Positions 19,666 to 42,834 of a stretch of 64,000 nt of DNA are shown here, in pieces. Each line of letters begins with the position of its first letter. Position 1 is the first letter of the stretch. The DNA comes from Nitrospirota bacterium (lineage in GTDB: Bacteria > Nitrospirota > Thermodesulfovibrionia > Thermodesulfovibrionales > Dissulfurispiraceae), in contig CAVPZX010000005.1 in assembly GCA_963710375.1 (NCBI GenBank), positions 32,001 to 96,000 of the forward strand. The letters run 5' to 3'. Below the pieces are notes generated by a model. That model was not told the origin of the DNA. It made no database searches and saw only the letters and a program-made list of their open reading frames with translations. The translations under genes were made by a program, and so were the position numbers.

Positions 19666-19838
19666 CCCACATTATTCATAAATTTATACAAGAAGCAGTC
19701 AGGCCACAGTGCTTCACTCATTCTCGCAAGGCATCCAGCCTTGCTCCGAGGCTATGACAGCCTGTTTCACCATCCTTGGTGTCACTTAGGCTGTCAAAGT
19801 CCGCTCAGCACCATGTCCCGCCTGCTTCTCGTATAAAT

Positions 19839-20510
19839 TTATGAATAATGTGGGTTAGCGTTTTTTTTGCACGGCTTTAGCCTTGGAATGAACATGGGGA
19901 CGCTCTGAGTGTAGTTCACATATTCGGCGCCGAATTTCTCTTTAAGCCTTTTCTCTTCCGTAACGGCCCCATAAATAAAATAAGCATCGGCAAGAATCGC
20001 CACGGTCAGCCAGTTGCGGGTTATATTGGGTTCAAAGGTAAAAATAATAATGCCGGCCAGATAGAGCGGATGCCTCACAAGGCCATAAGTGCCCCAGGTT
20101 ATAAGCCGGTCAACAGTAAGCCCTTCGATATTTCCTGATGGGGCCTCTCCTTTCACGTAACGCCATGCCTGTCTGAACCCGAGGAATTCCCGAAAATCGA
20201 GCACCCTGACTGTCAACATCGCCAGCAGCAGCCCTGAAAGTTGAACCATGTGCATAAGCCATCTGAATAATGCCGGTCCTTTGAATAGGACATGATCGTC
20301 TAGGGAGTAAATAAGCCCGAAAGCTGCACCCGTAGTAAGTGCACTGAAAATGGTATAAGAAAGGCGGTAAAAGGATTTTACAAACGCTTCGCCAACTGCC
20401 TTCCGAACAAATCCCTTTATGGAATCCTGCACGCAGAGACTGTGGATGAAAGCAAACGCAATGAAAATCACGGTGGTTGCCAGGACCGTTACCACTAAAA
20501 TTTGTACCAT
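19839..20510 (-). CDS. NnrU/isoprenylcysteine methyltransferase-family membrane protein
   Basis: Several TM segments, 'YGLVRHPLY', 'EEKRLKEKFGAEY'. Confidence 0.75.
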   Translation of the reverse strand: MVQILVVTVLATTVIFIAFAFIHSLCVQDSIKGFVRKAVGEAFVKSFYRLSYTIFSALTTGAAFGLIYSLDDHVLFKGPALFRWLMHMVQLSGLLLAMLTVRVLDFREFLGFRQAWRYVKGEAPSGNIEGLTVDRLITWGTYGLVRHPLYLAGIIIFTFEPNITRNWLTVAILADAYFIYGAVTEEKRLKEKFGAEYVNYTQSVPMFIPRLKPCKKNANPHYS

Positions 20511-21299: not shown

Positions 21300-21381
21300 G
21301 CCGAAGTGGTGGAACTGGTAGACACGCACGTTTGAGGGGCGTGTGGGGCAACCTATGCGGGTTCGAGTCCCGCCTTCGGCA
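21300..21381 (+). tRNA. tRNA-Leu (anticodon GAG)
   Basis: Acceptor stem gccgaag/cttcggc, D-arm ggtggaactggtagacac, anticodon loop ttGAGgg, long variable arm, T-loop gttcgag; CCA not encoded. Confidence 0.95.
21357..21381 (+). repeat. left attachment-site core (tRNA 3' end)
   Basis: Identical to 42810-42834. Confidence 0.9.
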
Positions 21382-21435
21382 CTCCTTCTTCCCTTGAAAT
21401 TTAAGTCTTTTTTGCCTTGACAACCTCCTAAAACC

Positions 21436-22283: not shown

Positions 22284-23231
22284 ATGATCATAAAATGGAG
22301 ATGCATAATTGGTAGTTTGACAATCCTCTTCTTGACTTCATCTGTGTCTTTAGCTCAATTACAGCCATCATCACCACACACACTCGAAACCAGCCACGAA
22401 GAACAAAAAAAGCCTGAAGCAAAACAGGCTGACGGTAACAACAAACAGCGTGTCGCCGACAGTCTTCCTACCCCGACACATCCCCAATCGTCGGATGTCA
22501 AAGCTAGTGACCATGCAAAAACCATTGATGAAAAAGCCACGACAGAATGGTTGAAACTTGTTTTTGATTTCCTGCTTGTACTTTTCAATTGTTTATTGTG
22601 GAGATCAACTTACAAACTTTGGAAAGTCGCTCAAGAACAACGTGAAGATGTGAAGGCGTCGATTGCTGAAGCTGTTCGTTCCACCGCTGCCATGGAAAGC
22701 ATCGCTAAGTCCATGGCCGAGAATGGGACAAGAATGGAACAAGTCTTCGAGAGACAAAAAAATATCGCTGAAATACAATTGAGAGCTTACCTTACCGTCA
22801 ACCCAGGCACGTATTGGATACAAAACAGAGAATTGGGGCTGAAGTATGGGATCCAAATGTTAATAGCGAACACAGGTCATACTCCTGCAAGCGAAGTTTA
22901 TTTTGCTATGCGCACAGTAGTCAATGACTTTCCTTTGCCGGATAGCTTTGATCTTTCCTTGCCTTCCCCTCGAACTCAAACAGGAACCGGAGCACAGATA
23001 GCCACTGGTCAGCAACGTTTTATGAGTGCCTTCCTTGATGACATCGTCTCTGATGAGGAACTCAAGGAATTTACCCAAGCTACCAATCGAAAACTGTACA
23101 TATTCGGGACCGTTTGGTATAAAGATATCTTTGAAGAATCTCACTATACCAACTTTTGTCAGTGGGCCATGTGGGATACCGCCGGGAAATTTAGCACTAT
23201 AAATGTTGATCGTCATAATGATGCAACATAG
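22284..23231 (+). CDS. hypothetical membrane protein
   Basis: Signal-like N-terminus, TM helix, coiled region, 'QLRAYL' then globular domain. Confidence 0.65.
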   Translation: MIIKWRCIIGSLTILFLTSSVSLAQLQPSSPHTLETSHEEQKKPEAKQADGNNKQRVADSLPTPTHPQSSDVKASDHAKTIDEKATTEWLKLVFDFLLVLFNCLLWRSTYKLWKVAQEQREDVKASIAEAVRSTAAMESIAKSMAENGTRMEQVFERQKNIAEIQLRAYLTVNPGTYWIQNRELGLKYGIQMLIANTGHTPASEVYFAMRTVVNDFPLPDSFDLSLPSPRTQTGTGAQIATGQQRFMSAFLDDIVSDEELKEFTQATNRKLYIFGTVWYKDIFEESHYTNFCQWAMWDTAGKFSTINVDRHNDAT

Positions 23232-23454: not shown

Positions 23455-24666
23455 TTAAATAGGCCGCTGTGTTCCTTCTTCCCTTCCGTTATATTCGATC
23501 CATATTTTCCATCGCCGTAGTCCCGTCTTGTCCCAACCGCCCATCATCTTCACGTGCCGCCCTAACTCGGCGAACAGGTGCCTTGCGACTCGTGCGTTGA
23601 ATGCATTGCCCAACTGTTTTAACCGTTCCGACTCCGCCATCTTTACGACCTCGCCGTCCTCGTAGCATCCCCACTTCGTCCACTGATGCGGTAGCGACTG
23701 CAACCGCTCCGCCTCCGTTGGCGTGAGTTGCCGGCGTCCGTCCGGAGTGTCGTACAGCCCCGTCTTTCCTCCTTTGCCGCCTCCACTCGTCGTGACCGTG
23801 ATACTTTTTCCATTCGGCGAATATATCCGCTGTCCCTGGCCGCCCCCGCCGTATTCTCCGATCTTCTTCCTGTCTCCCTCCCTGTCTTTCCACTCGACGG
23901 GTTCGGGCACGTCGAGGATGTCGCCGACGACGGCGCCCGGCCCGGTTCCGAGATACGCCGCAAGGCCGTCCCACCATTGGGTATCCGGTTGCCGGACCGG
24001 CCACGAACACCAGAAGTACCGCTCTCGCTGTTGGGCCGAGAACGCCGCCGCATTGATCAACACCGGCTCGACTCCGACGATCTCCGTCACTGCGTCACGC
24101 AACTTGCCGCCCATGCTCTCGACGTTCTCGAAGCAGAAATGGCGGGGCTTCTTCGTCTCGTACAGTTTCATCAAATTGTAGAACAGGCCCGACTTCTGCC
24201 CTTTCAGGCCCTTGCGTTTCCCGGCGCCGCTCATGTCCTGGCACGGAAATCCGCCGATCAAGAGGTCAAAGTCCGGCAGGCTTTTGTAGTCTATCTTTGT
24301 TATGTCGCCTTCGGCTTTGTGCCGTGGGAAGTGGTATCGATACACCGCCTGGGCATGCTCGTCTATCTCGCTGTATCCGACGCAACGCCACGGTAGCCCG
24401 TCCGGCCACTGCGTCGAATACCATAGGCCGAGCTCCGCCGCCCCGATCCCGCTGAACGCCGAGAAGTACGGATGGCCCGAGAGGTCTGGCTTGAAGAACT
24501 GCTTCGGGCCTTTCGGCGGCCTCCCGCCGTTAGCGCCGTTGACTGCCGACGTCCCTTGTTGCGCCGGGGTGTTCGACCTGCCATCACCCAAGCCGTGCCC
24601 TCGCTTGCCGATCTTGGAAAGGTATGCCGCGATTTCCGGTGGCACCGGGATTTTCTTCTTCGCCAT
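23455..24666 (-). CDS. DNA (cytosine-5)-methyltransferase with basic N-terminal extension
   Basis: Motif I 'FSGIG', IV 'GGFPCQ', VI 'ENV', VIII 'QQRERYF', IX 'LTPTEAERLQ', X 'QLGNA'. Confidence 0.9.
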   Translation of the reverse strand: MAKKKIPVPPEIAAYLSKIGKRGHGLGDGRSNTPAQQGTSAVNGANGGRPPKGPKQFFKPDLSGHPYFSAFSGIGAAELGLWYSTQWPDGLPWRCVGYSEIDEHAQAVYRYHFPRHKAEGDITKIDYKSLPDFDLLIGGFPCQDMSGAGKRKGLKGQKSGLFYNLMKLYETKKPRHFCFENVESMGGKLRDAVTEIVGVEPVLINAAAFSAQQRERYFWCSWPVRQPDTQWWDGLAAYLGTGPGAVVGDILDVPEPVEWKDREGDRKKIGEYGGGGQGQRIYSPNGKSITVTTSGGGKGGKTGLYDTPDGRRQLTPTEAERLQSLPHQWTKWGCYEDGEVVKMAESERLKQLGNAFNARVARHLFAELGRHVKMMGGWDKTGLRRWKIWIEYNGREEGTQRPI

Positions 24667-26116: not shown

Positions 26117-26534
26117 GTTGTTTTTCTCCTTCTGTGACAGGGCTTTCTTTTGGGTGCCCGTCATGTCTCTTGTGTCTGTTGTTGGTTCTATAAACTTCCC
26201 CGGACCGGCGGGGCCTTCACTTCTGACAGGCCCCGTTGTCCTGGGGAATTGCCTCTGTCTTCTGCGGCAGGGAAATACAGGCATGAGCAATGCGAGGGCA
26301 GGGATATGATCAATCAATCGACGAACGGCGCGAGGCAACGGACATGACAGGGCTTTATCTGGCGTGGCTGTTGAACGAAGCTACAAGAGAGTTTCCATAG
26401 GCAGGATTTTCCGGGCGTGTCGTTAATCCTGAACGAGGGGTTAAGGGGCCTGTGGCCCTTTAAGGCTTCCTTGGGAAGGATGGAAAGGGAAAAATGGTTT
26501 GACTTTTTTCAAAAAGAGAAGATAGTATATTTTA

Positions 26535-26899: not shown

Positions 26900-27365
26900 T
26901 TTTTTTGAATACGGGTCTTTGCAGGGCATTTAAAAGCGATGGGACTACTGTGATCCCATCGCGTCTTCTCTGTGGCGAGAGGCATGACAGGTTCCTGAAA
27001 GGGTTCTGGCGGGCATGTCGTGAAGGAGTAACCATAGGTGGTATTTTCCGGGCGTGCCGTTGACTTCGGCTTTAAAGTGGCGGAGTCCAGAGGCCCACGG
27101 CCTTTGCGAGTCTGTGGTCTTCGGGTGTGCGACTGTCGAGGTGCGAGGCCGAGACTGTCGAGGATGCCCTTGCGTGGATCTGTCTGCTGGGCTTCAACAG
27201 CAGTCTGATCCACGTCACCGTGGCCGTTGATGCGATATGGGGACACCCGCCGAATAGCCGAAACTCCGAAAGAGGTTCGGCAGTGGTGGCTCCGGCCCGA
27301 CCAGCGGATGCGATCGCACAATTGCGTGCTCGACTAAAGCTGGATTGTTTGAGTAAAATTAGGCC

Positions 27366-28517
27366 ATGTGGCAAAATTCTTTTTGGGCTCTTTTCTGTTG
27401 CAGCGTTGCATGTGCGCTGTCGCGACTTGCGATGATTTGGACGACTGGACACGAAGAATGGGGACCTCGGCTGGTGGCCGCCTCTCTTGTATTTTTCTTT
27501 CTCAGTATTGTTTGCCTTCTGTGTCCCTGGTTGAAAAAGAAGCTCGCAAGAGGCACGAACACTCCCGACATGCCGATATCTGACGCGATAAATTATCTGG
27601 TGAACGATTCCACCGCTAAGCTCAAGCAGCCGAAGTCCGCGGAGATCGAGCAGTTCGGAAGGGTCAAGGGTCTTCTGGTCAACTTTCCGGGGATCGCCCA
27701 TGCCGACGCCCTGCGGCATATTCAGACCGCCCTCAACTGCGGAAGCCTGAAGGCGTGGGGTCGCAGGGAAATAGCGCCGAACAGCCTCGCATTCGAGCCG
27801 TCGTCGAGGCCGATTTTGCCGGAGTATTGGGGGTCGGCCTGGGTGAACGACTTCTTTTGCTTCCATGAGGGCGAACAGGCGCAGACAGCCCCGTTTCGGG
27901 GCAAGATGGCGGATAGATACGCCGCCCTCACGCTGAACAAAAACGAGGTGAAGGCGCTGTGGACGCCCGTGTCCTTTCCGAGAAGATTCCTCATGGACAT
28001 GCGGATCATCCGGCGCAAGGACCGTTGCGGGCGGGCAATCGACAGAAAATACAAACTTACTAAGTCGGAAATCGAGAGATTCAACAGCCTGCCCCTCGCC
28101 GAATGCGAGTCGCCTCGTGCGAATTTCAATGCGGACTTCAACGAGGCGGCCAGGAGATTCAGGGAGGCTTTTCATCCCGTGCTTGCCAGGCTGGAAGCCC
28201 GCTCTTGCGACGACGGCTCGCCCGATGCCTACGAGTTGCTGGAAGACGCGTTTCAGCGGCTCGGCGAAGCGGTGATCGAATTCCGCAACTATGTGCCGAG
28301 CGATCAGCGCGCGGCTTTCGAGAAGGCATGGGAAGAACTGCGCAAGGACGAGTATAGTATCGCCTCCGGGCTTGAGGAGCGGAATTTCAAGCAGTACGCT
28401 GACGAGGCGACCGGCGTCCACGACGAACACCCGCGCGAGCCGCACAAGGCGGCGATAGATAGGATCGAGAAACTGTTGGATTTTGCCGCGCTGAGAGTCA
28501 GCGGCGCCGGCCTGTGA
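27366..28517 (+). CDS. hypothetical membrane-anchored protein
   Basis: Two N-terminal hydrophobic segments, two apparent soluble domains. Confidence 0.55.
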   Translation: MWQNSFWALFCCSVACALSRLAMIWTTGHEEWGPRLVAASLVFFFLSIVCLLCPWLKKKLARGTNTPDMPISDAINYLVNDSTAKLKQPKSAEIEQFGRVKGLLVNFPGIAHADALRHIQTALNCGSLKAWGRREIAPNSLAFEPSSRPILPEYWGSAWVNDFFCFHEGEQAQTAPFRGKMADRYAALTLNKNEVKALWTPVSFPRRFLMDMRIIRRKDRCGRAIDRKYKLTKSEIERFNSLPLAECESPRANFNADFNEAARRFREAFHPVLARLEARSCDDGSPDAYELLEDAFQRLGEAVIEFRNYVPSDQRAAFEKAWEELRKDEYSIASGLEERNFKQYADEATGVHDEHPREPHKAAIDRIEKLLDFAALRVSGAGL

Positions 28518-29999: not shown

Positions 30000-31604
30000 T
30001 TAAAATAATTCCTTCTGGTCTTTCTTCTTTTCGAGGGCTGCTTTTTTGAATGTAAGACCACCAGCGCCCAAATCAGGATATACGGGCCTTTCCTTCCCGT
30101 CCAGGAGTCCTTGTATGGTAAGAATTTGAATTTTAGGAAAGCTCTTGCCAGTTATCTCCGACGTGTAAAAGCCTGCCTTGGCGGCTTCGACTTCCATAGG
30201 CTTAGTTACTTCTGACAACGTCACAAAAAGACCTATTTGAGCTTCGTCTCTCTGAACTACACCCACCAAATCCCTTACCATTGGAACGCTGACATTTTCG
30301 CCGCCCTTCACGGACACTATTATCTTTCCTGTTTTTTTCTGATCCTCATGAAAGAAAATTAGTCCGTCTATACCACTATCAGCGCCTTTCTTTTTTCCCT
30401 TATAAGGCTGTGCATCAACTAAAGAGCATGCCCACCACTGGAATTGGTATTTGTCTCGTGTAGCGAGGTCTTTAGCGCCCTCATAATCTTTCGGTGTGCC
30501 ATGGACTTCATAGGAAACCTCCGGAAAGGCATCTTTTAGACGCTTTTCAATTAGGGAAATGGCAAGATGTGTAATATCTATGCCTATCCACTTACGATGG
30601 AGTTTCTCGGCTGCATGTACCGCCGTTCCGCATCCGCAAAACGGATCAAGCAAGATGTCGTCCTCACTTGAAGAAGCGGAGATAATTCTTTCAAGGAGGG
30701 CTAACGGCTTTTGAGTGGGATATCCCAGTCTCTCGGCAGCCTGTGCTCCGATGGGCATTATATCTGTAATCACTGATTTAATAGGAGTGCCTTTTTGCTC
30801 GTGCAAATATCTCTTGAGATAAGGACGCCCACTCTTACTCCATTCCAGCCGGGAAGCGGCATCCAGTGCTTCCAATTTCTCTCGCACAACTCGCCAACCC
30901 CATTCCGGCTTGTAGCCCTTGTATTCATAGGAAAGGTTGGGACGTGGTCCCATTGAGGCCGAACGTATGATATGATCAAGGCGATAAATACCTCTTTCAT
31001 CGTTATAACGATAGAAATCCTCGACATATTTAGGATCATGAGCAGTGAATACTGGGTTCCAGACAAAATTATTGCTCTTGCTGTAAAAAAGAATGGTATC
31101 GTGAACACTTCCCCATTTCATCGAATCATTGTGACTACTCGTTCGTTGCCAGATTATTTCATTCCTAAAATTCTCTGCACTAAATACACTATCCAGAACA
31201 ATCTTTAAATAATGGGATGCAGTAGGATCACAATGCAAGTAAAGACTCCCAGTCGGTTTTAGTACACGATGTAGTTCTGTTAGCCGGTTGGCCATCATAG
31301 TAAGATAAGCCATCATATCATTCTCACCAAGGAAGCGACGTAACGACTGCATCATCTCAGCGACGTCTGTATTTTTGCCATGTACCAACTGCGCAAATTC
31401 CGATTCAGCCTGCTGTCCCCAATGCCAGGTGTCTTCAAATGCTTCTATTTGTGCGTGGCTGCTGTGGCCCTTCGGAGATTTAAAAAGAACATTATATGTA
31501 GCCGAACTGTTGAAAGGCGGATCAAGATATATGAGATCAATGGTCTCATCCTTAATTTCGTCGCGTAGTACCTGAAGGTTATCGCCAAAATATAACTTGT
31601 TCAC
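30000..31604 (-). CDS. N6/N4 DNA methyltransferase with C-terminal Mrr-like domain
   Basis: 'IYLDPPF', 'YPTQKP', 'LDPFCGCGT'; C-terminal 'GADSGIDG...IVSVKGG'. Confidence 0.9.
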   Translation of the reverse strand: MNKLYFGDNLQVLRDEIKDETIDLIYLDPPFNSSATYNVLFKSPKGHSSHAQIEAFEDTWHWGQQAESEFAQLVHGKNTDVAEMMQSLRRFLGENDMMAYLTMMANRLTELHRVLKPTGSLYLHCDPTASHYLKIVLDSVFSAENFRNEIIWQRTSSHNDSMKWGSVHDTILFYSKSNNFVWNPVFTAHDPKYVEDFYRYNDERGIYRLDHIIRSASMGPRPNLSYEYKGYKPEWGWRVVREKLEALDAASRLEWSKSGRPYLKRYLHEQKGTPIKSVITDIMPIGAQAAERLGYPTQKPLALLERIISASSSEDDILLDPFCGCGTAVHAAEKLHRKWIGIDITHLAISLIEKRLKDAFPEVSYEVHGTPKDYEGAKDLATRDKYQFQWWACSLVDAQPYKGKKKGADSGIDGLIFFHEDQKKTGKIIVSVKGGENVSVPMVRDLVGVVQRDEAQIGLFVTLSEVTKPMEVEAAKAGFYTSEITGKSFPKIQILTIQGLLDGKERPVYPDLGAGGLTFKKAALEKKKDQKELF

Positions 31605-32281: not shown

Positions 32282-34090
32282 TTATCTGTGCAGGTCGGGC
32301 CGGATATCCGGGGTCCGGCCCGGCCCCACGACGCTATTTCCTTGCTGTATCTTGGCATCCACGGTTTCCAAAAGGGACATAAGTTCGTAGCCGTGAGCAT
32401 GCGCCATCTCTTCCCGCATGGCCTCCCCGTTGTCCACCGGGGCGGCGAACAAAGACGCCCCGGACTGCAGGGCGTTCTCGACCGCCGCACGCTTTAACAC
32501 TTGGAACAGTCCGCTCGGCCCTACGAACCCGATGACGGACTTGCTGATGTTCATGCGGATGCCGTCTTTCGCGAGTAGTTCTTTGAGTTGTTCGAGGGTC
32601 CTCGGCCTCGCCTGTTGCATCACTTCGTCAAGCCTCCCCTGCAACTTCTCGACAGTGTTCGTCAACTGGATGTTTCTATTCTTTAATGCCTCCGCTTTTT
32701 CGAGGGCTTCGGCGTTGGCCTTTTTGAGCTTGTCGGTTTCGTCCTGGGCGGCGTTAGGCTTTGGCCGATGCGTCTCCCCCCCGGCGTCGGCAACGACATA
32801 TCCGTCGTCACCGCCCGCCTCGACGCCTTCCCGCCGTTCGTGGCCCGCACGTCTATCGTCGCCATGGCGCCTATCGCCGACATTAGCCGCCGTGTCGTCT
32901 ATGGTCTCGACATGCTGGCCCGGCTCGGCGACTCCGCCGTGAGCCTGGAGATCCTCGGTGGCCGTCTTGGTCTTCTCGGCCTCGGCGGCCTTGATTATGT
33001 CCTCCTCGGTGATGCTCCCTTTCTCCCTCGCGAGCTTGAGCAATAGCGGCAACGCCACTGTCATCCCGATGTTTAAAGCGGTGCCTGCGACCACACCGGC
33101 CACGGCGACCACGTCCCTTTCCCCGGCCTGTACTATCGACGCCGCGCCCCTGACGGCGTGACCTCCGGCTTGCATCGCTGTGTTGCTGATCGCGTCAGTT
33201 TTCCTCTTCTGCTCTTTTTCTGCTTTCTCCATCTGTCTCACCCTCCGTTTTTGTAGATAGGTTATTACATCGTCCTTGCTTTTCAACCTCGGACGCCTAA
33301 TCAAGCCCTTCGGCCCCCCGATCCTGCATCGTCTCCCCTTCTCGTTCTGTATCGACAGATATTCCTTTGTTTCCGTGTCCTCAGCTACAGAATAGCCCCG
33401 CCCTTCCAAGTGCCTTTTGAAGTCCTCATAGTCCGTAGCGTTTGCCAATGCGAAATTTACCGCCTGCCTGTACGGTTCCCGATAGCTCGGCCTCGCCGGT
33501 TTCCCATTCTTCGGGAAAAGCATGTTCTGCTCGGCCTGCGAGCGGTTCGGCACGATCTCAAGCTCGTCATACTCCTTCGGCGCGAACTTGATGCCGGCCG
33601 CCTGAAACCGCTCCGACAAAGCCTGCTTGAGTTCCTCCGTCTCCGCAATCGCATTTCGCATCGGATGGTTTTTGATGTCCCGAAATATCAAGGCATGGGC
33701 GTGGTCATGATCATGGTTCCTGTCCGGCCCATGCCGGACAAGCAAAAAGGCCCCGTACCTCCTTGCGCACTCCTGTTGCACCTCAACAAACACCGCATCC
33801 CTGTCCTCCTCCGTCTCTGCCATGAGGCTGAACACCCTGCGACACGAGCTATGCGTCGGATCGGAACACAGAGCGAAGCGTCGCCGTATCTCGTCGGCCA
33901 TGTCCTCCCTGTCGATCTCCTCGCCCTGCTCGTTGTAGAGCTCCGCCGTCGGAGGCCTGCCGAGATAGGCACCGTGATCGAGGTCCTCTATAAGTCCCGT
34001 CCCCCACGACGTCACCTTTATGAACGGCCTGTAAGGTTCGGGCGCCTTGGCCTCGTCCACGTCTGTCGCCGTCACTGTCTCCGTTTCCAT
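32282..34090 (-). CDS. HUH relaxase (MOB-P-like) with long C-terminal extension
   Basis: 'LVRHGPDRNHDHDHAHALI' 3H motif, N-terminal 'GAYL' Tyr, 'ALANATDYEDFKRHLEGRGY'; coupled to mobC by TGATG. Confidence 0.8.
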   Translation of the reverse strand: METETVTATDVDEAKAPEPYRPFIKVTSWGTGLIEDLDHGAYLGRPPTAELYNEQGEEIDREDMADEIRRRFALCSDPTHSSCRRVFSLMAETEEDRDAVFVEVQQECARRYGAFLLVRHGPDRNHDHDHAHALIFRDIKNHPMRNAIAETEELKQALSERFQAAGIKFAPKEYDELEIVPNRSQAEQNMLFPKNGKPARPSYREPYRQAVNFALANATDYEDFKRHLEGRGYSVAEDTETKEYLSIQNEKGRRCRIGGPKGLIRRPRLKSKDDVITYLQKRRVRQMEKAEKEQKRKTDAISNTAMQAGGHAVRGAASIVQAGERDVVAVAGVVAGTALNIGMTVALPLLLKLAREKGSITEEDIIKAAEAEKTKTATEDLQAHGGVAEPGQHVETIDDTAANVGDRRHGDDRRAGHERREGVEAGGDDGYVVADAGGETHRPKPNAAQDETDKLKKANAEALEKAEALKNRNIQLTNTVEKLQGRLDEVMQQARPRTLEQLKELLAKDGIRMNISKSVIGFVGPSGLFQVLKRAAVENALQSGASLFAAPVDNGEAMREEMAHAHGYELMSLLETVDAKIQQGNSVVGPGRTPDIRPDLHR

Positions 34091-34434
34091 CAAAACGCCG
34101 CCCCAACGGTGGCCTGCAATATTTTTCTGATCTGTTCGAGGTACGCCTTCGCCTCGTCAGTGATAATCTGGATGTCCGGCCCCGCCCCGGACTTGTTGCC
34201 GATCCAAACCGCCTTGCACAATTGATTGAGCAACACGGCGTTGCTTTGAAGTTCCATTTTCAACAAGTGCAAAGCCTCCGTGTCCACCGGTCTGCCGAAT
34301 ACACTTTGCCTGAGCCATTCAGACGCGGACAACCCCGTTTGCTCCGCCTGCACCAACAACTGCGTGTGGCCTTCCGGCGTCATCTTGCATGTCACAGTAT
34401 GCGAGTATTTTTTAGGTCTCGGTTTCCGTGGCAT
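34090..34434 (-). CDS. mobC: MobC relaxosome accessory protein
   Basis: RHH N-terminus 'VTCKMTPE...GLSASEWLR', 'ELQSNAVLLNQL' (variant of GxNLNQ). Confidence 0.75.
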   Translation of the reverse strand: MPRKPRPKKYSHTVTCKMTPEGHTQLLVQAEQTGLSASEWLRQSVFGRPVDTEALHLLKMELQSNAVLLNQLCKAVWIGNKSGAGPDIQIITDEAKAYLEQIRKILQATVGAAF

Positions 34435-34817
34435 TAGTTAGCCCTCCTCTCCTCGTATGCCGACAACATCTCCGACATGCGATTGATACTGCCGCAAAAC
34501 CCGTCGATTGTTTTGTCCATGGTATCCAACGCTCGATCGAGCGGCGATGTAGCATGCTCGGTGTCAGTCTCCCTCCGTTCAAGCTCGTCAAGGAGTTCCC
34601 CTGTCGACAATGCAGACAAGCATTGTTCGACGCTCTGTTCGACAGCCGCTTTAACACTTCCGTCGTGTTCGACATCTTGTTGAACGGCCTGTTCGACAAG
34701 CACGGACCTGCGGATAAATTCAGAGACCGAAAGGCCCTCGGCTTTTGCTTTGTTCGACAAGCCTTCAAATTCGTCGTCCGAAAAGCGTACTCCACGCGGT
34801 TTCGATGTGTTCGACAT
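34434..34817 (-). CDS. RHH DNA-binding protein, first gene of the mob operon
   Basis: 'RGVRFSDDEF...AKAEGLSVSEFIR'; GGAGGTG RBS; TAATG overlap with mobC. Confidence 0.7.
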   Translation of the reverse strand: MSNTSKPRGVRFSDDEFEGLSNKAKAEGLSVSEFIRRSVLVEQAVQQDVEHDGSVKAAVEQSVEQCLSALSTGELLDELERRETDTEHATSPLDRALDTMDKTIDGFCGSINRMSEMLSAYEERRAN

Positions 34818-34849
34818 GTTCGACACCTCCATTTTTTGCGTGTTCGACA
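34624..34849. repeat. 8 copies of TGTTCGAC(A)
   Basis: Copies start at 34624, 34636, 34666, 34690, 34751, 34808, 34817, 34841. Confidence 0.8.
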
Positions 34850-34934
34850 CACTGTTTAACAGTTCCGCACGGTACTGCGGCTGCCTTTTTTGCCCCACTT
34901 GTGGGGAAGAGACCCAACGGGTCGAAGGGGAGTC

Positions 34935-34990
34935 AGGGAGGGTTACTTCGATAGAAGTAACTCCTCCCTTTATCTCCGCCTTGCTTTTGA
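34935..34990. other. candidate origin of transfer (oriT)
   Basis: Inverted repeat agggagggttacttc-gata-gaagtaactcctccct next to cgccttgc, just upstream of the RHH-mobC-relaxase operon. Confidence 0.5.
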
Positions 34991-35005
34991 AGACGGCCCT
35001 CCCTA

Positions 35006-36238
35006 TCAAAGATAGCGGGGCTCCGTGACGCCGACGCCCTGGACATTGCTGGTCTCCTGTTTCCATCCGGAAACCAATCTATCAACATTTGCAGTAAGAG
35101 CCGTTTTGTCTACCGCGACCCTGTTCCTGCCTTCTGCTTTCGCGCGATAGAGCATTTTGTCTGCGTCGCCCAACATTTCAAGTCCTCGGCGTCCCGACTC
35201 CGACAAAGGCAACTGCAACAGCGAACTGCTGACGCCGATAGACGCCGTGAGTGAAAAGGGTTTACCGTCAGCTTCGAACCACATATTTTGTATGTCAGTC
35301 CGTATTTTATTTGCACCACTGATAAACACATCCGGCGTTTCGCGGGAGGTATTTTTTACCTCTACTAAGATCGCCACCTCCTCCCCGCCTACCCTAGCTG
35401 TGATCGTCTGAAGCCCCGGAAATGCTTCCCCTGTAGTGGTCTGGATTTGCTTTGCAACGCCCGCAAGAACGGCGTCACCCGTATTGTGTCCATATCTGTC
35501 GTTGACATGCTTGAAGTAATCGAGGTCCAGAATGGCGGTATAAAAACAGAAATCGTGAGCCTCATTGACCAGCTTTTGAAGCCCGGCACGATTGGCCAAG
35601 CCCGTCAATGCGTCGGTGAAAGCAATGTCCTCCAAGCCCTTAATTTTTGAATCTATCTCCGAGACAAACCTGGCAACCTCCGGGGCCTGCCGGAGATAGA
35701 TCGGCAGTTCCAAGGTCGCCTTTTGATAAGACGCTTGCAACTGCTCCACCTGCGTTGTTAGCCTGCGAACCATGTCATCCCTTATCCGCAACTCACGCAA
35801 CACCTCGGTCACGGAGTCGCTGACTGTCGTGATTGCGTTGGTCTGCGTGTCCAAGATCGGCTTGACCGCCTGCATAACCGCTGATGTCATCTTTTCTTTC
35901 AAGTCCACCTGCGCCATGGCCTTGGCCCATTCCTCGGACCGTGCGTTAGCGAGGTCCTGCCAAGCGTCCGCCTCGTTTGCTAACAAGTTCTCGAATTCGG
36001 CAGTGAGCCAGTCCCGCCACGCCGACAATGCCCTTACCGACTTCGGTTCGCGGCGCGCATAATTTGCGACATCTCGGTCGAACCACTCAATGACCTCGCC
36101 CGCTGACAGCCGACCTTCTTGGTCCGCGCCGAAATGCATGTTTTCTGCCTCAGAGTCGGCAAACCAATCAATAAGCCCCTCGGGGGCGCCGTGTTCCCGT
36201 AGCCAGTCCAGCGTGATCATCGTTTCGTTTTTTTCCAT
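35006..36238 (-). CDS. GGDEF diguanylate cyclase (GGEEV variant) with coiled-coil N-terminus
   Basis: 'TDALTGLANR', 'DLDYFKHVNDRYGHNTGD', 'ARVGGEEV', 'TASIGV', 'ADKMLYRAKAEGRNRV'; GGAGG RBS at ATG 36238. Confidence 0.85.
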   Translation of the reverse strand: MEKNETMITLDWLREHGAPEGLIDWFADSEAENMHFGADQEGRLSAGEVIEWFDRDVANYARREPKSVRALSAWRDWLTAEFENLLANEADAWQDLANARSEEWAKAMAQVDLKEKMTSAVMQAVKPILDTQTNAITTVSDSVTEVLRELRIRDDMVRRLTTQVEQLQASYQKATLELPIYLRQAPEVARFVSEIDSKIKGLEDIAFTDALTGLANRAGLQKLVNEAHDFCFYTAILDLDYFKHVNDRYGHNTGDAVLAGVAKQIQTTTGEAFPGLQTITARVGGEEVAILVEVKNTSRETPDVFISGANKIRTDIQNMWFEADGKPFSLTASIGVSSSLLQLPLSESGRRGLEMLGDADKMLYRAKAEGRNRVAVDKTALTANVDRLVSGWKQETSNVQGVGVTEPRYL

Positions 36239-36272
36239 CCGTTTTTCCTCCGTGTTTTTATTTTTTACGACT

Positions 36273-36470
36273 TTAAAAGAACAGTTCCGCCCCGGCCTCA
36301 ACCTCGACAGGTTCCGGGGCCTCCGGTTTTTTTGTTTGCATTTCCACCGGCATCTGCACGGGGAAAATCCACCGCTTGCACCCCCGGCACCACTCCACTG
36401 TCTCCTTCACCTTTTTGCCGCACAGCGGGCATAGAAAAAGGATCGGCTTCCCCTGTTTCATTTCCGACAT
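36273..36470 (-). CDS. small Zn-ribbon protein
   Basis: 'CPLCGK...WCRGCK'; start overlaps the upstream stop (TGATG). Confidence 0.6.
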   Translation of the reverse strand: MSEMKQGKPILFLCPLCGKKVKETVEWCRGCKRWIFPVQMPVEMQTKKPEAPEPVEVEAGAELFF

Positions 36471-36589
36471 CAGTTCCACCGGGCGGCGAGCCACGCCGCG
36501 ACTGCCTCGGCCTCGGCGACGTACCCGGCTTTTATCAAGTGGCTGATGACGGGGTTAAGGGGCTTCTGCTTGGGTTTCTGCTGTTTCAT
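36470..36589 (-). CDS. 39-aa hypothetical protein
   Basis: MKQQKPKQKPLNPVISHLIKAGYVAEAEAVAAWLAARWN; coupled at both ends. Confidence 0.5.
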   Translation of the reverse strand: MKQQKPKQKPLNPVISHLIKAGYVAEAEAVAAWLAARWN

Positions 36590-36795
36590 CAGTTGCCTCC
36601 CTTGTCAGGTTCTTTGTCCGGCATCGCCCTAATCACTGCGGCCCAATTGGTTTTTGTCTTCTTCGGCTTCTCCTGGGCGGGTGCCGGTGGTGCAGGCTGA
36701 TAGAACGGGCACTTGTTGTGCTCGTTTGGTTCCCTCTCGCATGTGCCCCGCTCCTCGCATGTCATGCATATGCTCTCATATCCTTTGGTGTTCAT
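36589..36795 (-). CDS. small Cys-rich hypothetical protein
   Basis: 'CMTCEERGTC...CPFY'; ATGA overlap with the upstream gene. Confidence 0.55.
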   Translation of the reverse strand: MNTKGYESICMTCEERGTCEREPNEHNKCPFYQPAPPAPAQEKPKKTKTNWAAVIRAMPDKEPDKGGN

Positions 36796-37211
36796 CGGCC
36801 CGCCTCCTGTGAGACCGGTGCGGAGTCCTCGGCGTCCTTTACCCATGGCTCGCACGTCTGCCACTTGTGCATCGCCTCGTACTGCATCCCGAAATTGCCC
36901 TGCCATGCGAGCCACGGGCTCACACGATACCAGCAATCATTGCCGTCCCTGCGTTGCTTCACTAAGCCCTTGGACGCCAAGGTCTTGGCGGCGTTTATGA
37001 CGGACTTCCTGCTGACGTGGAGTTGCTTGGCGACCTTACTGTGCGATATGCAGACCTCGGCTCCCTGGTAGCCGACCGTCAGGACCAGGGCCATGAGCAC
37101 CTTGAAGTTGACGTGGGACAGTTCCGCCATTGCGGCGTGCAGTCCGTTCCTGGCGACCATCACGTTGCCACCCGTCGCCTTGTTGTAGTCAGACATAAAC
37201 TTCTCGCTCAT
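36792..37211 (-). CDS. RepL-like winged-HTH protein, copy 2
   Basis: 'FKVLMAL...ISHSKVAKQLHVSRKSVINAAKTLASKGLV...YRVSPWLAWQG'. Confidence 0.65.
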   Translation of the reverse strand: MSEKFMSDYNKATGGNVMVARNGLHAAMAELSHVNFKVLMALVLTVGYQGAEVCISHSKVAKQLHVSRKSVINAAKTLASKGLVKQRRDGNDCWYRVSPWLAWQGNFGMQYEAMHKWQTCEPWVKDAEDSAPVSQEAGR

Positions 37212-37756
37212 GACTGCACCTCCTGTGCCTGCCAATTGCGGCCCCTGAGCACCTTTAACAAAGGTTTTAGCTTTCCCTTCCACGCGCATTGCGGATTCAG
37301 CCGGATATACATGGTGCCGCCCTTCTCGACCTTGCACAGATAGCCGCCGCCAACCATCTCGCCATCTACCTCTATACCGTCTATCAAGGTGTGGATATGA
37401 GTGTAGATGGTCTGCTGCGAACTGATGTTAAGTGCGGCAGCTATCTCGGTATTGCTTATGTGGATGTAGTTTTCAAAATCGAGGCGGGCCATGAGGTAGC
37501 AGAGAACCCGGCATGCGCCGGAAGGCAACTCCGTGGCTGCCTTAAGAAGCGTCGATTGAAATGCTATGATGTGGTCGCCGACAAATCCGTTAAGCTCCTT
37601 CTGCTCCTTACGGATGGCTGCGAAACGGGACTTAGATACAAGCAGCTGCACCGATTGCTCTGCGAGTATCTCGCCGGTTTCATCGTTGGTGATCGAAACG
37701 GTGTGATTTCTGGAGGGTTGCCTTGTTGCTGTTACTGTATTGGCCTTTGTGTTCAC
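37208..37756 (-). CDS. RepL-like replication/maintenance protein, copy 1
   Basis: 'DETGEI', 'RVLCYLMARLDFENYIHISNTEIAAALNIS', 'RLNPQCAWKG'; GTG start after AGGAG. Confidence 0.75.
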   Translation of the reverse strand: MNTKANTVTATRQPSRNHTVSITNDETGEILAEQSVQLLVSKSRFAAIRKEQKELNGFVGDHIIAFQSTLLKAATELPSGACRVLCYLMARLDFENYIHISNTEIAAALNISSQQTIYTHIHTLIDGIEVDGEMVGGGYLCKVEKGGTMYIRLNPQCAWKGKLKPLLKVLRGRNWQAQEVQS

Positions 37757-37973
37757 CTGTGCACTCCTATCCGTCTGGATTTTCGTGCACGGTGACTTGC
37801 TTGGTCGGCCACGACCATGGCGTCGGTGGGGCGGGATAGAGCCTTGCACTGCCCAGTTCCCGAAACTCTCCACGCTCAGTCTGGTGGAGATGCTCCCCGT
37901 TGCCGCTACTGCTTTTTGATCTGTTTAGTGTATCACAAAACTTCCTCGAACCCCTGAAAACCGCCCTTGTGAG

Positions 37974-38339
37974 CTAAACGATGCTGTTAAATGTTTGTTT
38001 TTTCGGCTTTCTATTCGGCCTCGGCTGTGATGCATTTTCACGGCAAGCCTTCGTCTTCCTTTCCGACTTCGCTTTGCCGCCGATCTTTCCGCCCTTGCTT
38101 GCCCAGCCGCGAACGAACACTGATGCCTCGGCGTCGCTGAACATGCCGTGATATTGCATAATGAGCACGGTGGCTTCGGGATCGTCGTCGTGGTCGTCGA
38201 ATACGAAAGCCGCAGGCGGCTCCGGCAGGCCCAAGTATTTTGCCCGAGAAAAATAGAAGCCGCCGACTTCAAGAGCGACAACCCATGGCACCGGCTCGTC
38301 TGCTCTGTACGATTTTCCTCTGTGCTTGTATGTTTTCAT
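37974..38339 (-). CDS. hypothetical protein with basic KGG-type C-terminus
   Basis: 'ASKGGKIGGKAKSERKTKACRENA'; GGAGG RBS. Confidence 0.6.
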   Translation of the reverse strand: MKTYKHRGKSYRADEPVPWVVALEVGGFYFSRAKYLGLPEPPAAFVFDDHDDDPEATVLIMQYHGMFSDAEASVFVRGWASKGGKIGGKAKSERKTKACRENASQPRPNRKPKKQTFNSIV

Positions 38340-38450
38340 CTGTCAAAGCTCCTCCGGTTCCTGTTCTATTTTAATTATAGCAGAACACGCTTCGATAATT
38401 CAAGTCCTTTCCCAAACTTTTTTCGCGGGTATTTGCCCTACATTTTCGTT

Positions 38451-39140
38451 TTCCAAAATATTGGAAGATTTTTCCAAAAATTTGGAAAGTCCTTGTTGAT
38501 GCTGTAGGCTTCCGGGGTCATCTCTTAATGTATAATGTTTCAGTGCTGATTAAGGAGCCTTTTACAGCACTGGCCGACCATCGCCTTTGTCTTTATTACG
38601 CCGTCCCCGACTTCGCCGTGAGCGAATAGTTCGCGCCGAGTTCCGAAAACTCCCTGCGATGCTCGGCGACGATAAAGCCGTCGCCTGTGCTTCTCGCTCG
38701 CTTTCGGTCCTCGTCAGGACTTATAAATTTTTAAAAAGACCGCCTTGAACGAAGAGGGCCCCGGTTCCTTCCGGCGATTCTCGCCCGCCGTGCCTTCGCC
38801 TCTCAGAAAATCTTTAATATTCTGTCAGGGCGGTTCGGGACCCGACGACGAGGAGCGAGGCTCGGGAGCGATGAGGAGGAGCGGCCCGAATCCCCTGACG
38901 CGGGTCGCTCGTTCGGAGAACGAGTGACCTTCTTTCAGATAGCATCACTCCGTCCCTCTGCTATCTGGAGATCTTCCAGATACATTTACGGCGGCCTCTC
39001 CTGCGGGATCCCACCGATCCCGTGCCGGCCGTTGTCCAATGTCTTCACCTTTCCTTCCAAAGCCGGTCTTCAATCATTTTACTGTTTGACTATGTTGCGG
39101 CGGCTGCGGTGTGGGCCTGGGCCGCCGCCATCTCATAGCT
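38451..39140. other. candidate replication origin / single-strand origin region
   Basis: Two 16-bp imperfect palindromes (38451, 38472) followed by about 600 bp of hairpin-rich DNA with no credible ORF. Confidence 0.45.
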
Positions 39141-39147
39141 CGCCTCA

Positions 39148-40134
39148 CTAAGTTCCTTTGTACTGAGACAGCAGGCCGTGTATGTAGAGGTTCAAACTCA
39201 TGCCGATTTTCCTGGCACGTCGTTCGAGGTCGGCCTTTTCTGTTTTAGTCACGGTCATCGTGTACGGGTGCATCACCATGCCCTCCGGTTCTTCTTCGGG
39301 GGATAGCAGCTTGCGCACATACGCCTCTTTCTCTACTCCCGCGGCCTGTGCGGCGTCGACGATGGCCCGGTCCTCGTCGGCGTCATGGCCGTGCAGCCAG
39401 AATGTGAGTTTGACCTGCTCAGCGGACTCCCCGACTGTCCTCTTCTGCTCGATGACCGCCTTCGCTGCCTCTCGGACTTCGGTCTTGTTTACGCCACTGG
39501 CTATCTCGTCCTGTTGGGCGGGAGGCAGTTCTGCGACCTTGGCCGCCGTGTTAGCAGACAACGTCTTTTCTTTGACCGCTTTCTGTAACGCCGGCGTGCC
39601 CTTGGCGATGACCGTCTTTAGTTGTCTGTATTTGTCCTCTCCGACTCCGGCTGTGGCGGCCAGTGACTTTGTGGTATCAACCGGCCTGATGTTTGAAACC
39701 TTGCCGGATTTCCGGGAAGGCTTCGACGTCTTCCCCGCCGCCGCTAGGTTCGCCTTGGCCTGTTGTTCAAGCATGGGCCGTAGCTTTTCGGCAAGCGCGA
39801 TTTTGTCCAAGTCGGACAGGTTGCGCCGGCCGAACTGGTTCTTGATGATCCAGATTTTGACCTCGGTGTCGCTGGCGAACTGAATCTCATGCGTGCGGAA
39901 CTGTATGCCGTGTTTGTGACATATCTCGTACCGGTTGTGTCCGTCCAAGATGACTCCGGTCCCCCCCCACTCGACGAGGGCGTCCCGGCATCCCTCAGCT
40001 ACGATGCTCTGTTCGAGCCGTTCATACTCGTCGGCGGTCAGCTTGGGGATCAATGTCCTGAAGTCATCCCTGATCGTCATTTCCCTGAGTTCCCTGTGTC
40101 CTGCGTCCTGTGTTTTCTCCACTGCCGTTGCCAT
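39148..40134 (-). CDS. ParB-like N-terminal domain protein
   Basis: 'LTADEYERLEQSIVAEGCRDAL...ILDGHNRYEIC...NQFGRRNL', HTH-like middle, RHH-like C-terminus. Confidence 0.75.
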   Translation of the reverse strand: MATAVEKTQDAGHRELREMTIRDDFRTLIPKLTADEYERLEQSIVAEGCRDALVEWGGTGVILDGHNRYEICHKHGIQFRTHEIQFASDTEVKIWIIKNQFGRRNLSDLDKIALAEKLRPMLEQQAKANLAAAGKTSKPSRKSGKVSNIRPVDTTKSLAATAGVGEDKYRQLKTVIAKGTPALQKAVKEKTLSANTAAKVAELPPAQQDEIASGVNKTEVREAAKAVIEQKRTVGESAEQVKLTFWLHGHDADEDRAIVDAAQAAGVEKEAYVRKLLSPEEEPEGMVMHPYTMTVTKTEKADLERRARKIGMSLNLYIHGLLSQYKGT

Positions 40135-41306: not shown

Positions 41307-42788
41307 ATGGGAAAGCTTACGCCAAAGGGTAGAGGCTATGAGAAAGACGAGACGATACTAATCGGCGAACAAGATCGCAACAAGCAACCTCGCACCGGCC
41401 TTCCTGGGCGGATATACATCGACGGACAGTATGTCGAGCGGTGTCCCTACGTCGGCGGCCACACGTGGGTCGTCAACGACGAAAACGCGAAGTGGATATG
41501 CAAGGAGTGCGGCTATGTCCCGCCCGCATATCTGATCGATGTCGTGGATCACAAGACAGTCGTTGACATCATGGACAAAAAGACCGGCAAGCCGGTCCTT
41601 AACAAGGACGGCTCGCCTAAAAGGCGTTTTGCTCGTGTCCGCATTTTCAACGACGCCCTCGGCGTCCGTCTCACTTCATATAGACAGGCCCTTTACACTT
41701 TGGAGCAAGTCCGACATGAGATAGCCGCCGAGACATTCACCCCGGCAATATACTCCAAACGAGCCGCCAAAGAGTTGTACTTCGAGACGCTTTGCGACGA
41801 GCTTTTCACGCTGAAAAAAGCTCTTAAACGGCTGGCGCCTTCATATGTCAAAGACTATCGGCGCTACTGCTCGTCGCATAAGACATATTTCAGGGGCCGT
41901 CGAGTCGGCGACATCACGACAGCCGACATATCGAGCTACGAGGCATATCTAAGGACGCCGCCCGCCGAATGGTCCGACATATATATCAAGCGGTATATGG
42001 ACCACCTGAAAAGCGTCTTTCTCTGGCTGTACAGAGACAAGAAGGCGATAAAAGAAATGCCACGCTTCGAGAAGATCAAAGCCATGGCAGGAGCGGGCAC
42101 CGGCACTTACATGCCCGCTCCTGCACAAGCCGCCGTCCTCGCCATGATCGACAACGAAGCGGACCGGCAGTTTGTCCGGTTCCTGATGCTCCATGGCCGT
42201 AGGCCCAGCGAAGCAAGGGCCATGAAGAAGAAAAGCATCGTGCCGCTTGCCAAGACGATAACTATCAGCGAGCATTTTTCCGGCAACACCATTGTCCCCG
42301 GCGTCAAAAGCCGCGTTGAACAGCAGGTCATACCGATGCACCCGGAGATGGCCGGATGGCTCATTGCCCGTTGGGACGGGCTTGACGATCCAGAGGCGTT
42401 TATATTCGTCAATCCTCACGCTAACGGCGGACGTGGCGGCCATATCGACGAAAACAGCCGTCGTCCGTACACTGCGGATGCGGCATACAAGCTGTGGCGA
42501 CGAGTTCGCAAAGCCTGCAAGCTCCCTCAAAGTATGCGGATGTACGATGCCACCAGACACAGTGCGGGTACGCAGATGTCGCAAGCGGGGTTGAGTGCGA
42601 AGTCGATCTCAATGCTCCTCGGCAACACGCCCGCAACGGCCTCGAAGCACTATATACATGACGATCTCGAACACGCGCGCGAATGCCTCTCGGTGCTGAC
42701 AACGGAAGCCCCGAAGAAGGCCCCGAAACTCACAGTTGTCAGTAAAGTGTCAGTAGGGGGTAAGGGTCGTCCGCAAAGCAAGGAATGA
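41307..42788 (+). CDS. int: tyrosine recombinase/integrase
   Basis: 'HGRRPSEA' (R), 'VKS' (K), 'YDATRHS' (R), 'LLGN...KHY' (Y); ends 21 bp before the right att core. Confidence 0.9.
   Translation: MGKLTPKGRGYEKDETILIGEQDRNKQPRTGLPGRIYIDGQYVERCPYVGGHTWVVNDENAKWICKECGYVPPAYLIDVVDHKTVVDIMDKKTGKPVLNKDGSPKRRFARVRIFNDALGVRLTSYRQALYTLEQVRHEIAAETFTPAIYSKRAAKELYFETLCDELFTLKKALKRLAPSYVKDYRRYCSSHKTYFRGRRVGDITTADISSYEAYLRTPPAEWSDIYIKRYMDHLKSVFLWLYRDKKAIKEMPRFEKIKAMAGAGTGTYMPAPAQAAVLAMIDNEADRQFVRFLMLHGRRPSEARAMKKKSIVPLAKTITISEHFSGNTIVPGVKSRVEQQVIPMHPEMAGWLIARWDGLDDPEAFIFVNPHANGGRGGHIDENSRRPYTADAAYKLWRRVRKACKLPQSMRMYDATRHSAGTQMSQAGLSAKSISMLLGNTPATASKHYIHDDLEHARECLSVLTTEAPKKAPKLTVVSKVSVGGKGRPQSKE
42736..42756. 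repeat. candidate integrase arm-type site (right)
   Basis: ttgtcagtaaagtgtcagtag, 20/21 identical to 21436-21456. Confidence 0.7.
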
Positions 42789-42809: not shown

Positions 42810-42834
42810 GCGGGTTCGAGTCCCGCCTTCGGCA
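42810..42834 (+). repeat. right attachment-site core (duplicated tRNA-Leu 3' end)
   Basis: Identical to 21357-21381. Confidence 0.9.

Follow-up and report, generated by a model that had tools for sequence, protein, structure and literature searches.

A predicted diguanylate cyclase beside a likely transfer origin on an integrated mobilisable element of a Nitrospirota bacterium

The gene at 35006..36238 encodes an intact-looking orphan GGEEV protein that we predict to be an active c-di-GMP synthase, and it is likely a lineage-specific accessory lying between a RepL-like gene chain and a likely oriT; we put the probability of this reading at about 0.6. The gene was analysed within 64,000 nucleotides of a Nitrospirota genome (hereafter the window), where it belongs to an island of about 21.5 kb flanked by identical 25-nt direct repeats at a tRNA-Leu gene. 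The ends of the island and its integrase are as follows.

21357..21381, plus strand: att core, inside the 3' end of tRNA-Leu(gag) (21300-21382)
42810..42834, plus strand: second att core, 25 out of 25 positions identical to the first
41361..42788, plus strand: tyrosine integrase (PF00589, E 4e-10)

The island also encodes two DNA methyltransferases, a ParB-like protein, two NikA/RHH proteins and a 603-aa relaxase-like protein. An integrase with att direct repeats, together with a relaxase and a likely oriT but no T4SS of its own, marks it as an integrative mobilisable element. A family search identified no T4SS families among the 29 element proteins, and a search of the host genome, 98.8% complete, returned neither PF02534 (VirD4-type) nor PF03135 (VirB4-type), so the element would need a helper to transfer and probably depends on one. 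The sequencing runs gave no clean sign of island excision: one loose read end at 21381 matched the sequence past the second att, but it may represent the att repeat carried on that single long contig. A DNA search of 40 relatives recovered the island as short pieces at most, and eleven regions sharing short DNA matches with it in genomes of the genus and family contained no relaxase and no GGDEF gene. Near-identical island copies in runs from three studies kept the arrangement, with the cyclase invariant; these copies come from a near-identical strain, four of the runs are possibly the source itself, and they are not independent evidence.

Comparison with the runs also indicated that one window base at 38859 is absent from all covering runs (5 out of 5) and is likely an assembly error in the window, and that positions 22301 and 41475 differ from the window in more than one run. 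A short repeat element dispersed through the host genome is marked at 19666-19861, where four runs have raised depth and numerous loose ends. Inside the island, a 36-nt direct repeat (26389-26424 and 27026-27061, 83%) flanks a small ORF, and part of the surroundings of the second copy recurs in G001, G002, G009 and G014. Among the other island genes are an N6/N4 methyltransferase fused to an Mrr-like nuclease domain (30000-31604; low GC, host-like codons), a C5 methyltransferase with element-like codons (23455-24666), the ParB-like protein, with RHH repeats at its C-terminus (39148-40134), and a family-less 383-aa membrane-anchored protein (27366-28517) with 47% full-length identity to a gene of G008. 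The host carries a second, unrelated island at tmRNA (G000:C2:520288-527390), whose integrase is 32% related; it also holds methyltransferase/nuclease-like genes and a rolling-circle-like Rep (so labelled from inspection), and no mob or GGDEF genes were seen in it.

The cyclase gene and the genes upstream of it lie on the minus strand.

35006..36238, minus strand: diguanylate cyclase, 410 aa, GGDEF domain at residues 206-373
36273..36470, minus strand: zinc-ribbon protein, 65 aa, final gene of the chain (DZR_2 below cut-off)
36470..36795, minus strand: two small coupled ORFs, 68 aa (36795-36589) and 39 aa (36589-36470), no family
36792..37211, minus strand: RepL2, a winged-helix protein weakly like phage O/replication initiator N-termini
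37208..37756, minus strand: RepL1, a RepL-like winged-helix protein with an HTH_36 match
38374..38403, minus strand: sigma70-like promoter with an extended -10, from a consensus match only

The original prediction had made the cyclase the last gene of the replication cluster, following a stop/start-coupled chain. The coupling was found along the chain from repL1 through repL2, the 68-aa and 39-aa ORFs and the zinc-ribbon gene, but not at the cyclase, which starts 34 nt past the zinc-ribbon gene with its own Shine-Dalgarno sequence (GGAGG, 8 nt upstream of the ATG). Because the 34-nt gap contains no minus-strand terminator-like site, transcription of the cyclase together with the upstream chain is plausible. 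The promoter at 38374..38403 was the sole minus-strand candidate upstream of the cyclase within 34400-38700, where four promoter-like matches compare with 2.1 in shuffles. Sequestration of the cyclase Shine-Dalgarno sequence with coupling to the zinc-ribbon gene was rejected (fold z 0.34, missing from the centroid). We infer the replication function of the cluster: RepL1 shares about 33% identity with plasmid proteins that carry a RepL annotation (218 records), and the winged-helix and phage O matches of RepL2 were weak and below cut-off, with no match in the plasmid collection and three weak HTH matches across 300 genomes of the phylum. An AT-rich stretch at 38435-38495, just upstream of the promoter-like site, holds two related palindromes (TTCCAA..TTGGAA), a possible operator or replication origin.

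As had been proposed, the protein is a sensor-less GGDEF protein: the domain at 206-373 was matched at E 1.7e-27, covering the full PF00990 profile (1-161; 96.6 bits against a cut-off of 23.8) and scoring 103.7 against a cut-off of 37.4 for TIGR00254, and no sensor family rose above its cut-off. The protein fell far below all equivalog cut-offs. Its motif reads RVGGEEV at 282-288, and it keeps 36 out of 43 columns conserved among 40 homologues, out of the 119 listed. The kept residues include D209, N216, D238, D240, K243, N246, D247, H251, D255, R282, G284-E287, K367 and R371. Every metal-, guanine- and phosphate-contacting residue examined is retained, the contact roles being those we presume from the PleD literature. 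To this extent the catalytic motifs are intact, as the original prediction had it, but A218 replaces Arg, V288 replaces Phe, five residues are inserted and the RxxD site is absent.

These departures would suit a drifting or repurposed domain with weak or no cyclase activity, serving as a GTP-binding or interaction module that, for example, poisons or tunes a host cyclase through the coiled coil. GGEEV makes up 2 out of 126 motifs among the 119 best homologues and the NRA variant occurs in 4 out of 98; the spacing is 34, compared with 29-30 in 118 out of 121; 37 out of 40 homologues retain more consensus positions than the cyclase; and the open-access literature yielded no text joining GGEEV with diguanylate. 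We nevertheless regard such drift as quite unlikely, given that the contact residues are all kept and that the gene has an intact frame and a strong Shine-Dalgarno sequence, whereas the degenerate GGDEF proteins of the same host have lost the motif outright. All matches, among the best 7997 candidates of 5.8 billion proteins, span the catalytic half only, at 30-42% identity; conservation of the residues despite this divergence is consistent with selection on the active site. The closest host paralogue is just 32% identical, so capture from the present host was not recent. The host has 11 other GGDEF-like ORFs, with eight PilZ and seven MshEN matches as putative c-di-GMP readers.

The I-site expected five residues before the motif is absent (G275/T278 in place of RxxD), which predicts no canonical product feedback; RxxD is present in 97 out of 126 homologue motifs and missing in 29. 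As for the product, Hypr enzymes pair Ser/Thr with GGDE, and Asp at that position gives GTP specificity (PMC6456294, relevant section). Hypr enzymes such as GacA have the GGDEF fold in common with the cyclase, but they need Ser/Thr at 348 (GacA 347/348) and GGDE[F/Y], whereas the cyclase has Asp255 and GGEEV. Asp occupies the position equivalent to 255 in 119 out of 119 homologue motifs. The earlier suggestion of another cyclic dinucleotide gained no support and is unlikely, as Asp255 with GGEE is the c-di-GMP pattern, and we predict c-di-GMP rather than cGAMP as the product.

The layout of the protein is as follows.

Residues ~1-110: orphan helical N-terminal domain
Residues ~115-205: likely coiled coil
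Residue 209: DxLT hinge
Residues 206-373: GGEEV domain
C-terminus: short tail

A coiled coil had been predicted, and a crudely scored heptad-like hydrophobic periodicity at ~120-175 agrees with it, as do the long helices of the full-length model, itself of low confidence (pLDDT 42). A phmmer search of 1.84 billion representatives with the N-terminal 203 residues returned the protein itself and one spurious repeat-protein match. The half was found in 0 out of 389 other genomes of the class and in no phages, gave weak coiled-coil matches only in PHROGs, and had no relative in the Atlas when residues 1-200 were used. Residues 5-90 produced an Atlas lead of 0.89, below the 0.9 threshold, to small phage-rich proteins, in clusters where 22-23% of the members carry PF27195 (YdhT_N). 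The predicted fold of 1-110 (pLDDT 62) had no Foldseek match to viral structures at E 0.001, and its best Z of 6.7, among helical bundles, is not informative.

Coiled-coil dimerisation ahead of DxLT is described for DgcR and WspR (PMC8041772, in part), and by analogy the window cyclase would dimerise in the same way. Like the coiled-coil-linked DgcR, WspR, SadC and SiaD, it has a helical linker into DxLT and an intact GGEE site; unlike them, it has no receiver or known input domain and no RxxD.

Codon use differs between the halves: the N-terminal half is element-like, with GC3 0.68, and the catalytic half has 0.56 (permutation p 0.025, Fisher p 0.022, for one post-hoc split), a hint of a captured GGDEF domain fused to an element gene. 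Extended further, a GGDEF domain fused onto a phage-like helical protein of the element would yield a feedback-free cyclase that enters first and hijacks the c-di-GMP network of the recipient, with the orphan N-terminal domain as its input. We consider this extension very doubtful; if true, the protein would be an establishment factor that works through a second messenger, and such factors do not figure prominently among the leading-region genes described so far.

The following features lie downstream of the cyclase.

34971..34982, plus strand: nick-like motif TATCTCCGCCTT, cut predicted near 34978/34979
34936..34968, plus strand: inverted repeat directly 5' of the nick-like motif, from sequence and fold, arranged as in the RP4 oriT
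34893..34923, plus strand: two short GC-rich hairpins, resembling a pair upstream of mobC in the related loci L018 and L034
34818..35005, no strand: candidate oriT, a cluster of hairpins separating the cyclase stop from the mob genes, from the DNA fold
34434..34817, minus strand: ribbon-helix-helix protein, NikA-like/CopG (PF21983, E 2.6e-9), start at 34817 or 34832
34090..34434, minus strand: MobC/NikA-like relaxosome accessory protein (PF21983, E 1.1e-9)
32282..34093, minus strand: divergent MOBP-related relaxase, 603 aa, 33-35% identical to the L018 relaxase

The claim that the cyclase points at a candidate oriT was confirmed, its stop codon lying 23 nt from the nick-like motif. Folded as single-stranded DNA, region 34810-35040 reached z -4.75, and 0 out of 200 shuffles were as good. 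The nick-like motif had one match in the window against 0.02 expected, and 10 out of 12 of its positions are common to L018 and L036. In the de novo motif search, which took the upstream regions of the window and its two closest relatives, L018 and L036, and left out the other four, 2 out of 500 resamples matched the quality of the shared 12-mer. The MOBP nick consensus is (C/T)ATCCTG(C/T) with a proximal inverted repeat (PMC3772185, in part). The window motif is a variant that adjoins an inverted repeat and does not match this consensus exactly; the exact MOBP nick sequence, TATCCTGCC, was found only in L037, 75 nt upstream of mobC at the equivalent place and strand. L037 also holds the 12-mer inside another region, and its 9-mer occurs elsewhere by chance. 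An alternative nick at the GCAAG hairpin loop was dropped in favour of the de novo motif. We infer that the plus strand is transferred after a cut near 34978/34979; the fold, the 12-mer common to two relatives and the L037 nick sequence support the proposed leading-side geometry.

The relaxase had no Pfam match (PF03432), nor did the L018, L036 and L039 proteins. It was assigned to MOBP because the relatives found with the same profile include L032, L034 and L037, which exceed the PF03432 cut-off. Its Tyr43 and His121/131/133 align with those of the relatives, giving the motif I Tyr and HUH triad of MOBP. Seeded with a homologue from G147 (35%), the profile identified 16 database proteins, one near-identical to the window relaxase and two with PF03432, and six loci in 5 out of 389 other genomes of the class; no relaxase loci were found in the viral, metagenome and plasmid collections, and a genome scan for the relaxase locus returned the contig of L018 only. 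The window protein, those of L018, L032, L034, L036, L037 and L039 and P0123-P0137 form a divergent MOBP-related clade largely missed by Pfam. Between P0127/P0128/P0136 with P0133/P0135 and the rest, the N-terminal catalytic domains appear to have been swapped and the C-terminal part kept. A gene that we take to be TrbL-like, encoding a membrane protein with no family match, follows the relaxase in several relatives of the class.

The hairpins might instead be a terminator or a mob promoter/operator, or the element might be immobile, and the position of the cyclase would then be meaningless. The inexact motif and the missing Pfam match would fit this, as would the extra RHH gene between the hairpin region and mobC, the host in which neither a coupling protein nor VirB4 was found, and the runs with no clean excision evidence. 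We judge it highly improbable, because the motif and hairpins are common to relatives at equivalent places, the 25-nt att repeats are perfect, and the integrase, MobC and relaxase frames are intact with their catalytic residues. The RHH protein is weakly similar to an RHH gene of L032 and is likely a relaxosome accessory or regulator. Many TGTTCGAC-like repeats, possible RHH binding sites, lie in and upstream of its gene (34600-34870), and L032 and L034 have repeated TGTATAC words at the equivalent place.

On the likely-oriT reading, the cyclase occupies a leading-region position, facing oriT from the side opposite the relaxase, with the polarity deduced from the predicted nick. It would be the first gene to enter the recipient, and the transferred strand would carry its template, as is described for leading-region genes (PMC11541004, in part). 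The original prediction went further and made the cyclase a backbone gene expressed early in recipients. A fixed gene of a RepL subfamily, expressed early from the leading region, could provide a c-di-GMP pulse under which the new host stays attached, or its defences are weakened, during establishment of the element. As the first gene past the predicted nick, with no sensor, no RxxD and element-like codons, the cyclase would suit this role, and the arrangement is retained in identical copies, which represent a near-identical strain and are not independent. One leading-enriched family in the supplement of PMC11541004 has seven members of which three are annotated diguanylate cyclase; this was the one diguanylate mention in the ten supplement files searched, and neither diguanylate nor GGDEF appears in the available main text.

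Other observations make early expression of a fixed backbone gene unlikely. Ten consecutive genes, from 40803 to 35006, all face oriT, so orientation says little about the cyclase. There is no consensus promoter directly upstream of it and no minus-strand promoter-like site between repL1 and its start. In a scan for single-strand (Frpo-type) promoters, the folds were at z -1.06, -2.53 and -1.69: the region around the 38403-38374 promoter was not unusual (z -1.06), and the stretch just upstream of the cyclase (z -2.53) had no consensus promoter. Rfam matched tRNA only. We found no evidence for early expression or counter-defence by the cyclase, and the open-access literature gave no report of a cyclase placed at oriT or within a leading region; promotion of aggregation through c-di-GMP is plausible by analogy.

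The comparison with related loci also spoke against a backbone gene. A GGDEF gene was present in 0 out of 6 related relaxase loci, which carry other replication modules; absence from related backbones is the outcome that the original prediction had named as refuting it. Neither tblastn nor a GGDEF HMM on six frames detected GGDEF in the 157 kb around these loci. Four loci were covered from att to att (about 11, 11.6, 12.4 and 20 kb), L036 is cut at the relaxase end with its leading side readable, and the limits of L039 were not found in 30 kb; the count leaves out the neighbourhoods of the 15 database relaxases P0123-P0137. The relatives are distant (relaxase identity 27-35% at best) and their replication modules differ, so the comparison does not extend to the RepL-type lineage. 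RepL1 was found in 0 out of 389 other genomes of the class, and a second RepL-type element was not found. The gene upstream of oriT differs in each related locus, which makes the slot variable and selection for timing unnecessary. At 0.014, the codon score of the cyclase is above that of 99.4% of 537 host ORFs (4 out of 9 contigs); the low-GC cargo genes of the element score as host-like. Element-like codon use over the whole gene argues for long residence, and the cyclase is probably a long-resident accessory of the present lineage.

Set against known systems, the six loci (L018, L032, L034, L036, L037/38 and L039/40) are like the window in having a relaxase, mobC, a hairpin-rich oriT-like region and an integrase at a tRNA or direct repeats, but in place of RepL they carry primase/helicase, DUF5906 or other replication genes, and they have no GGDEF gene. 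Like establishment genes of the leading region, the cyclase lies opposite the relaxase and is oriented toward oriT; unlike them, it belongs to no anti-defence, SSB, MTase or TA family and has no single-strand promoter that we could find, and cyclases are at most a marginal class in the material available from PMC11541004.

GGDEF cargo includes DgcK and DgcL of SXT/R391 ICEs and Dgc137, Dgc139 and Dgc140 of the genomic island VPII, which are reported to alter biofilm and motility, in other recipient genera included (PMC10672970, in part). The window cyclase resembles these as a predicted GGDEF enzyme on an integrating mobile element. They are ICE or island cargo in Vibrio and relatives; here the host is a member of the Nitrospirota, and a 21.5-kb element with no T4SS of its own carries a single cyclase, orphan at its N-terminus, with rep-like genes on one side and the likely oriT on the other. 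Proteins of c-di-GMP turnover occur on 6-10% of plasmids, and plasmid GGDEF proteins raised biofilm and conjugation, according to the sections available of a review (PMC10333796). In our searches, the catalytic domain was matched by at least 4973 out of 72,556 plasmids. Two 4.67-kb MOBP plasmids of Enterobacteriaceae (L041 and L042) had a sensor diguanylate cyclase as sole recognisable cargo. Such plasmids (NZ_CP056489.1 and OW970324.1) are, like the window element, minimal and mobilisable with a single diguanylate cyclase, but they are not integrated, and theirs is a sensor-bearing cyclase encoded past the mob genes on the downstream side, only ~33% identical to the window's over the catalytic domain. 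Cyclases have already been described on ICEs, islands and small MOBP plasmids. By sequence, the window gene belongs to the GGDEF family and does not encode a Hypr enzyme; it is not conserved in the relaxase family and is most likely a singleton accessory of an already familiar type.

For an accessory c-di-GMP synthase, we propose that the protein would dimerise through its N-terminal helices and coiled coil, bringing two GTP-loaded GGDEF domains together. As canonical feedback is predicted to be missing, expression would be the main control on output, probably through the operon promoter near 38400 at times when the replication and maintenance genes are on. The c-di-GMP would be read by host PilZ and MshEN proteins, cells would shift toward attachment, and attachment may favour contact and hence spread of the element.

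If the early timing were real, establishment would proceed through second-messenger synthesis instead of anti-CRISPR or anti-restriction proteins. To the mobile DNA that carries a c-di-GMP synthase, the element adds a predicted case with an orphan input domain and no feedback site, from a little-studied phylum. It also brings a divergent relaxase family missed by Pfam, and the comparison of loci supplies a predicted nick site for this new MOBP-related clade.
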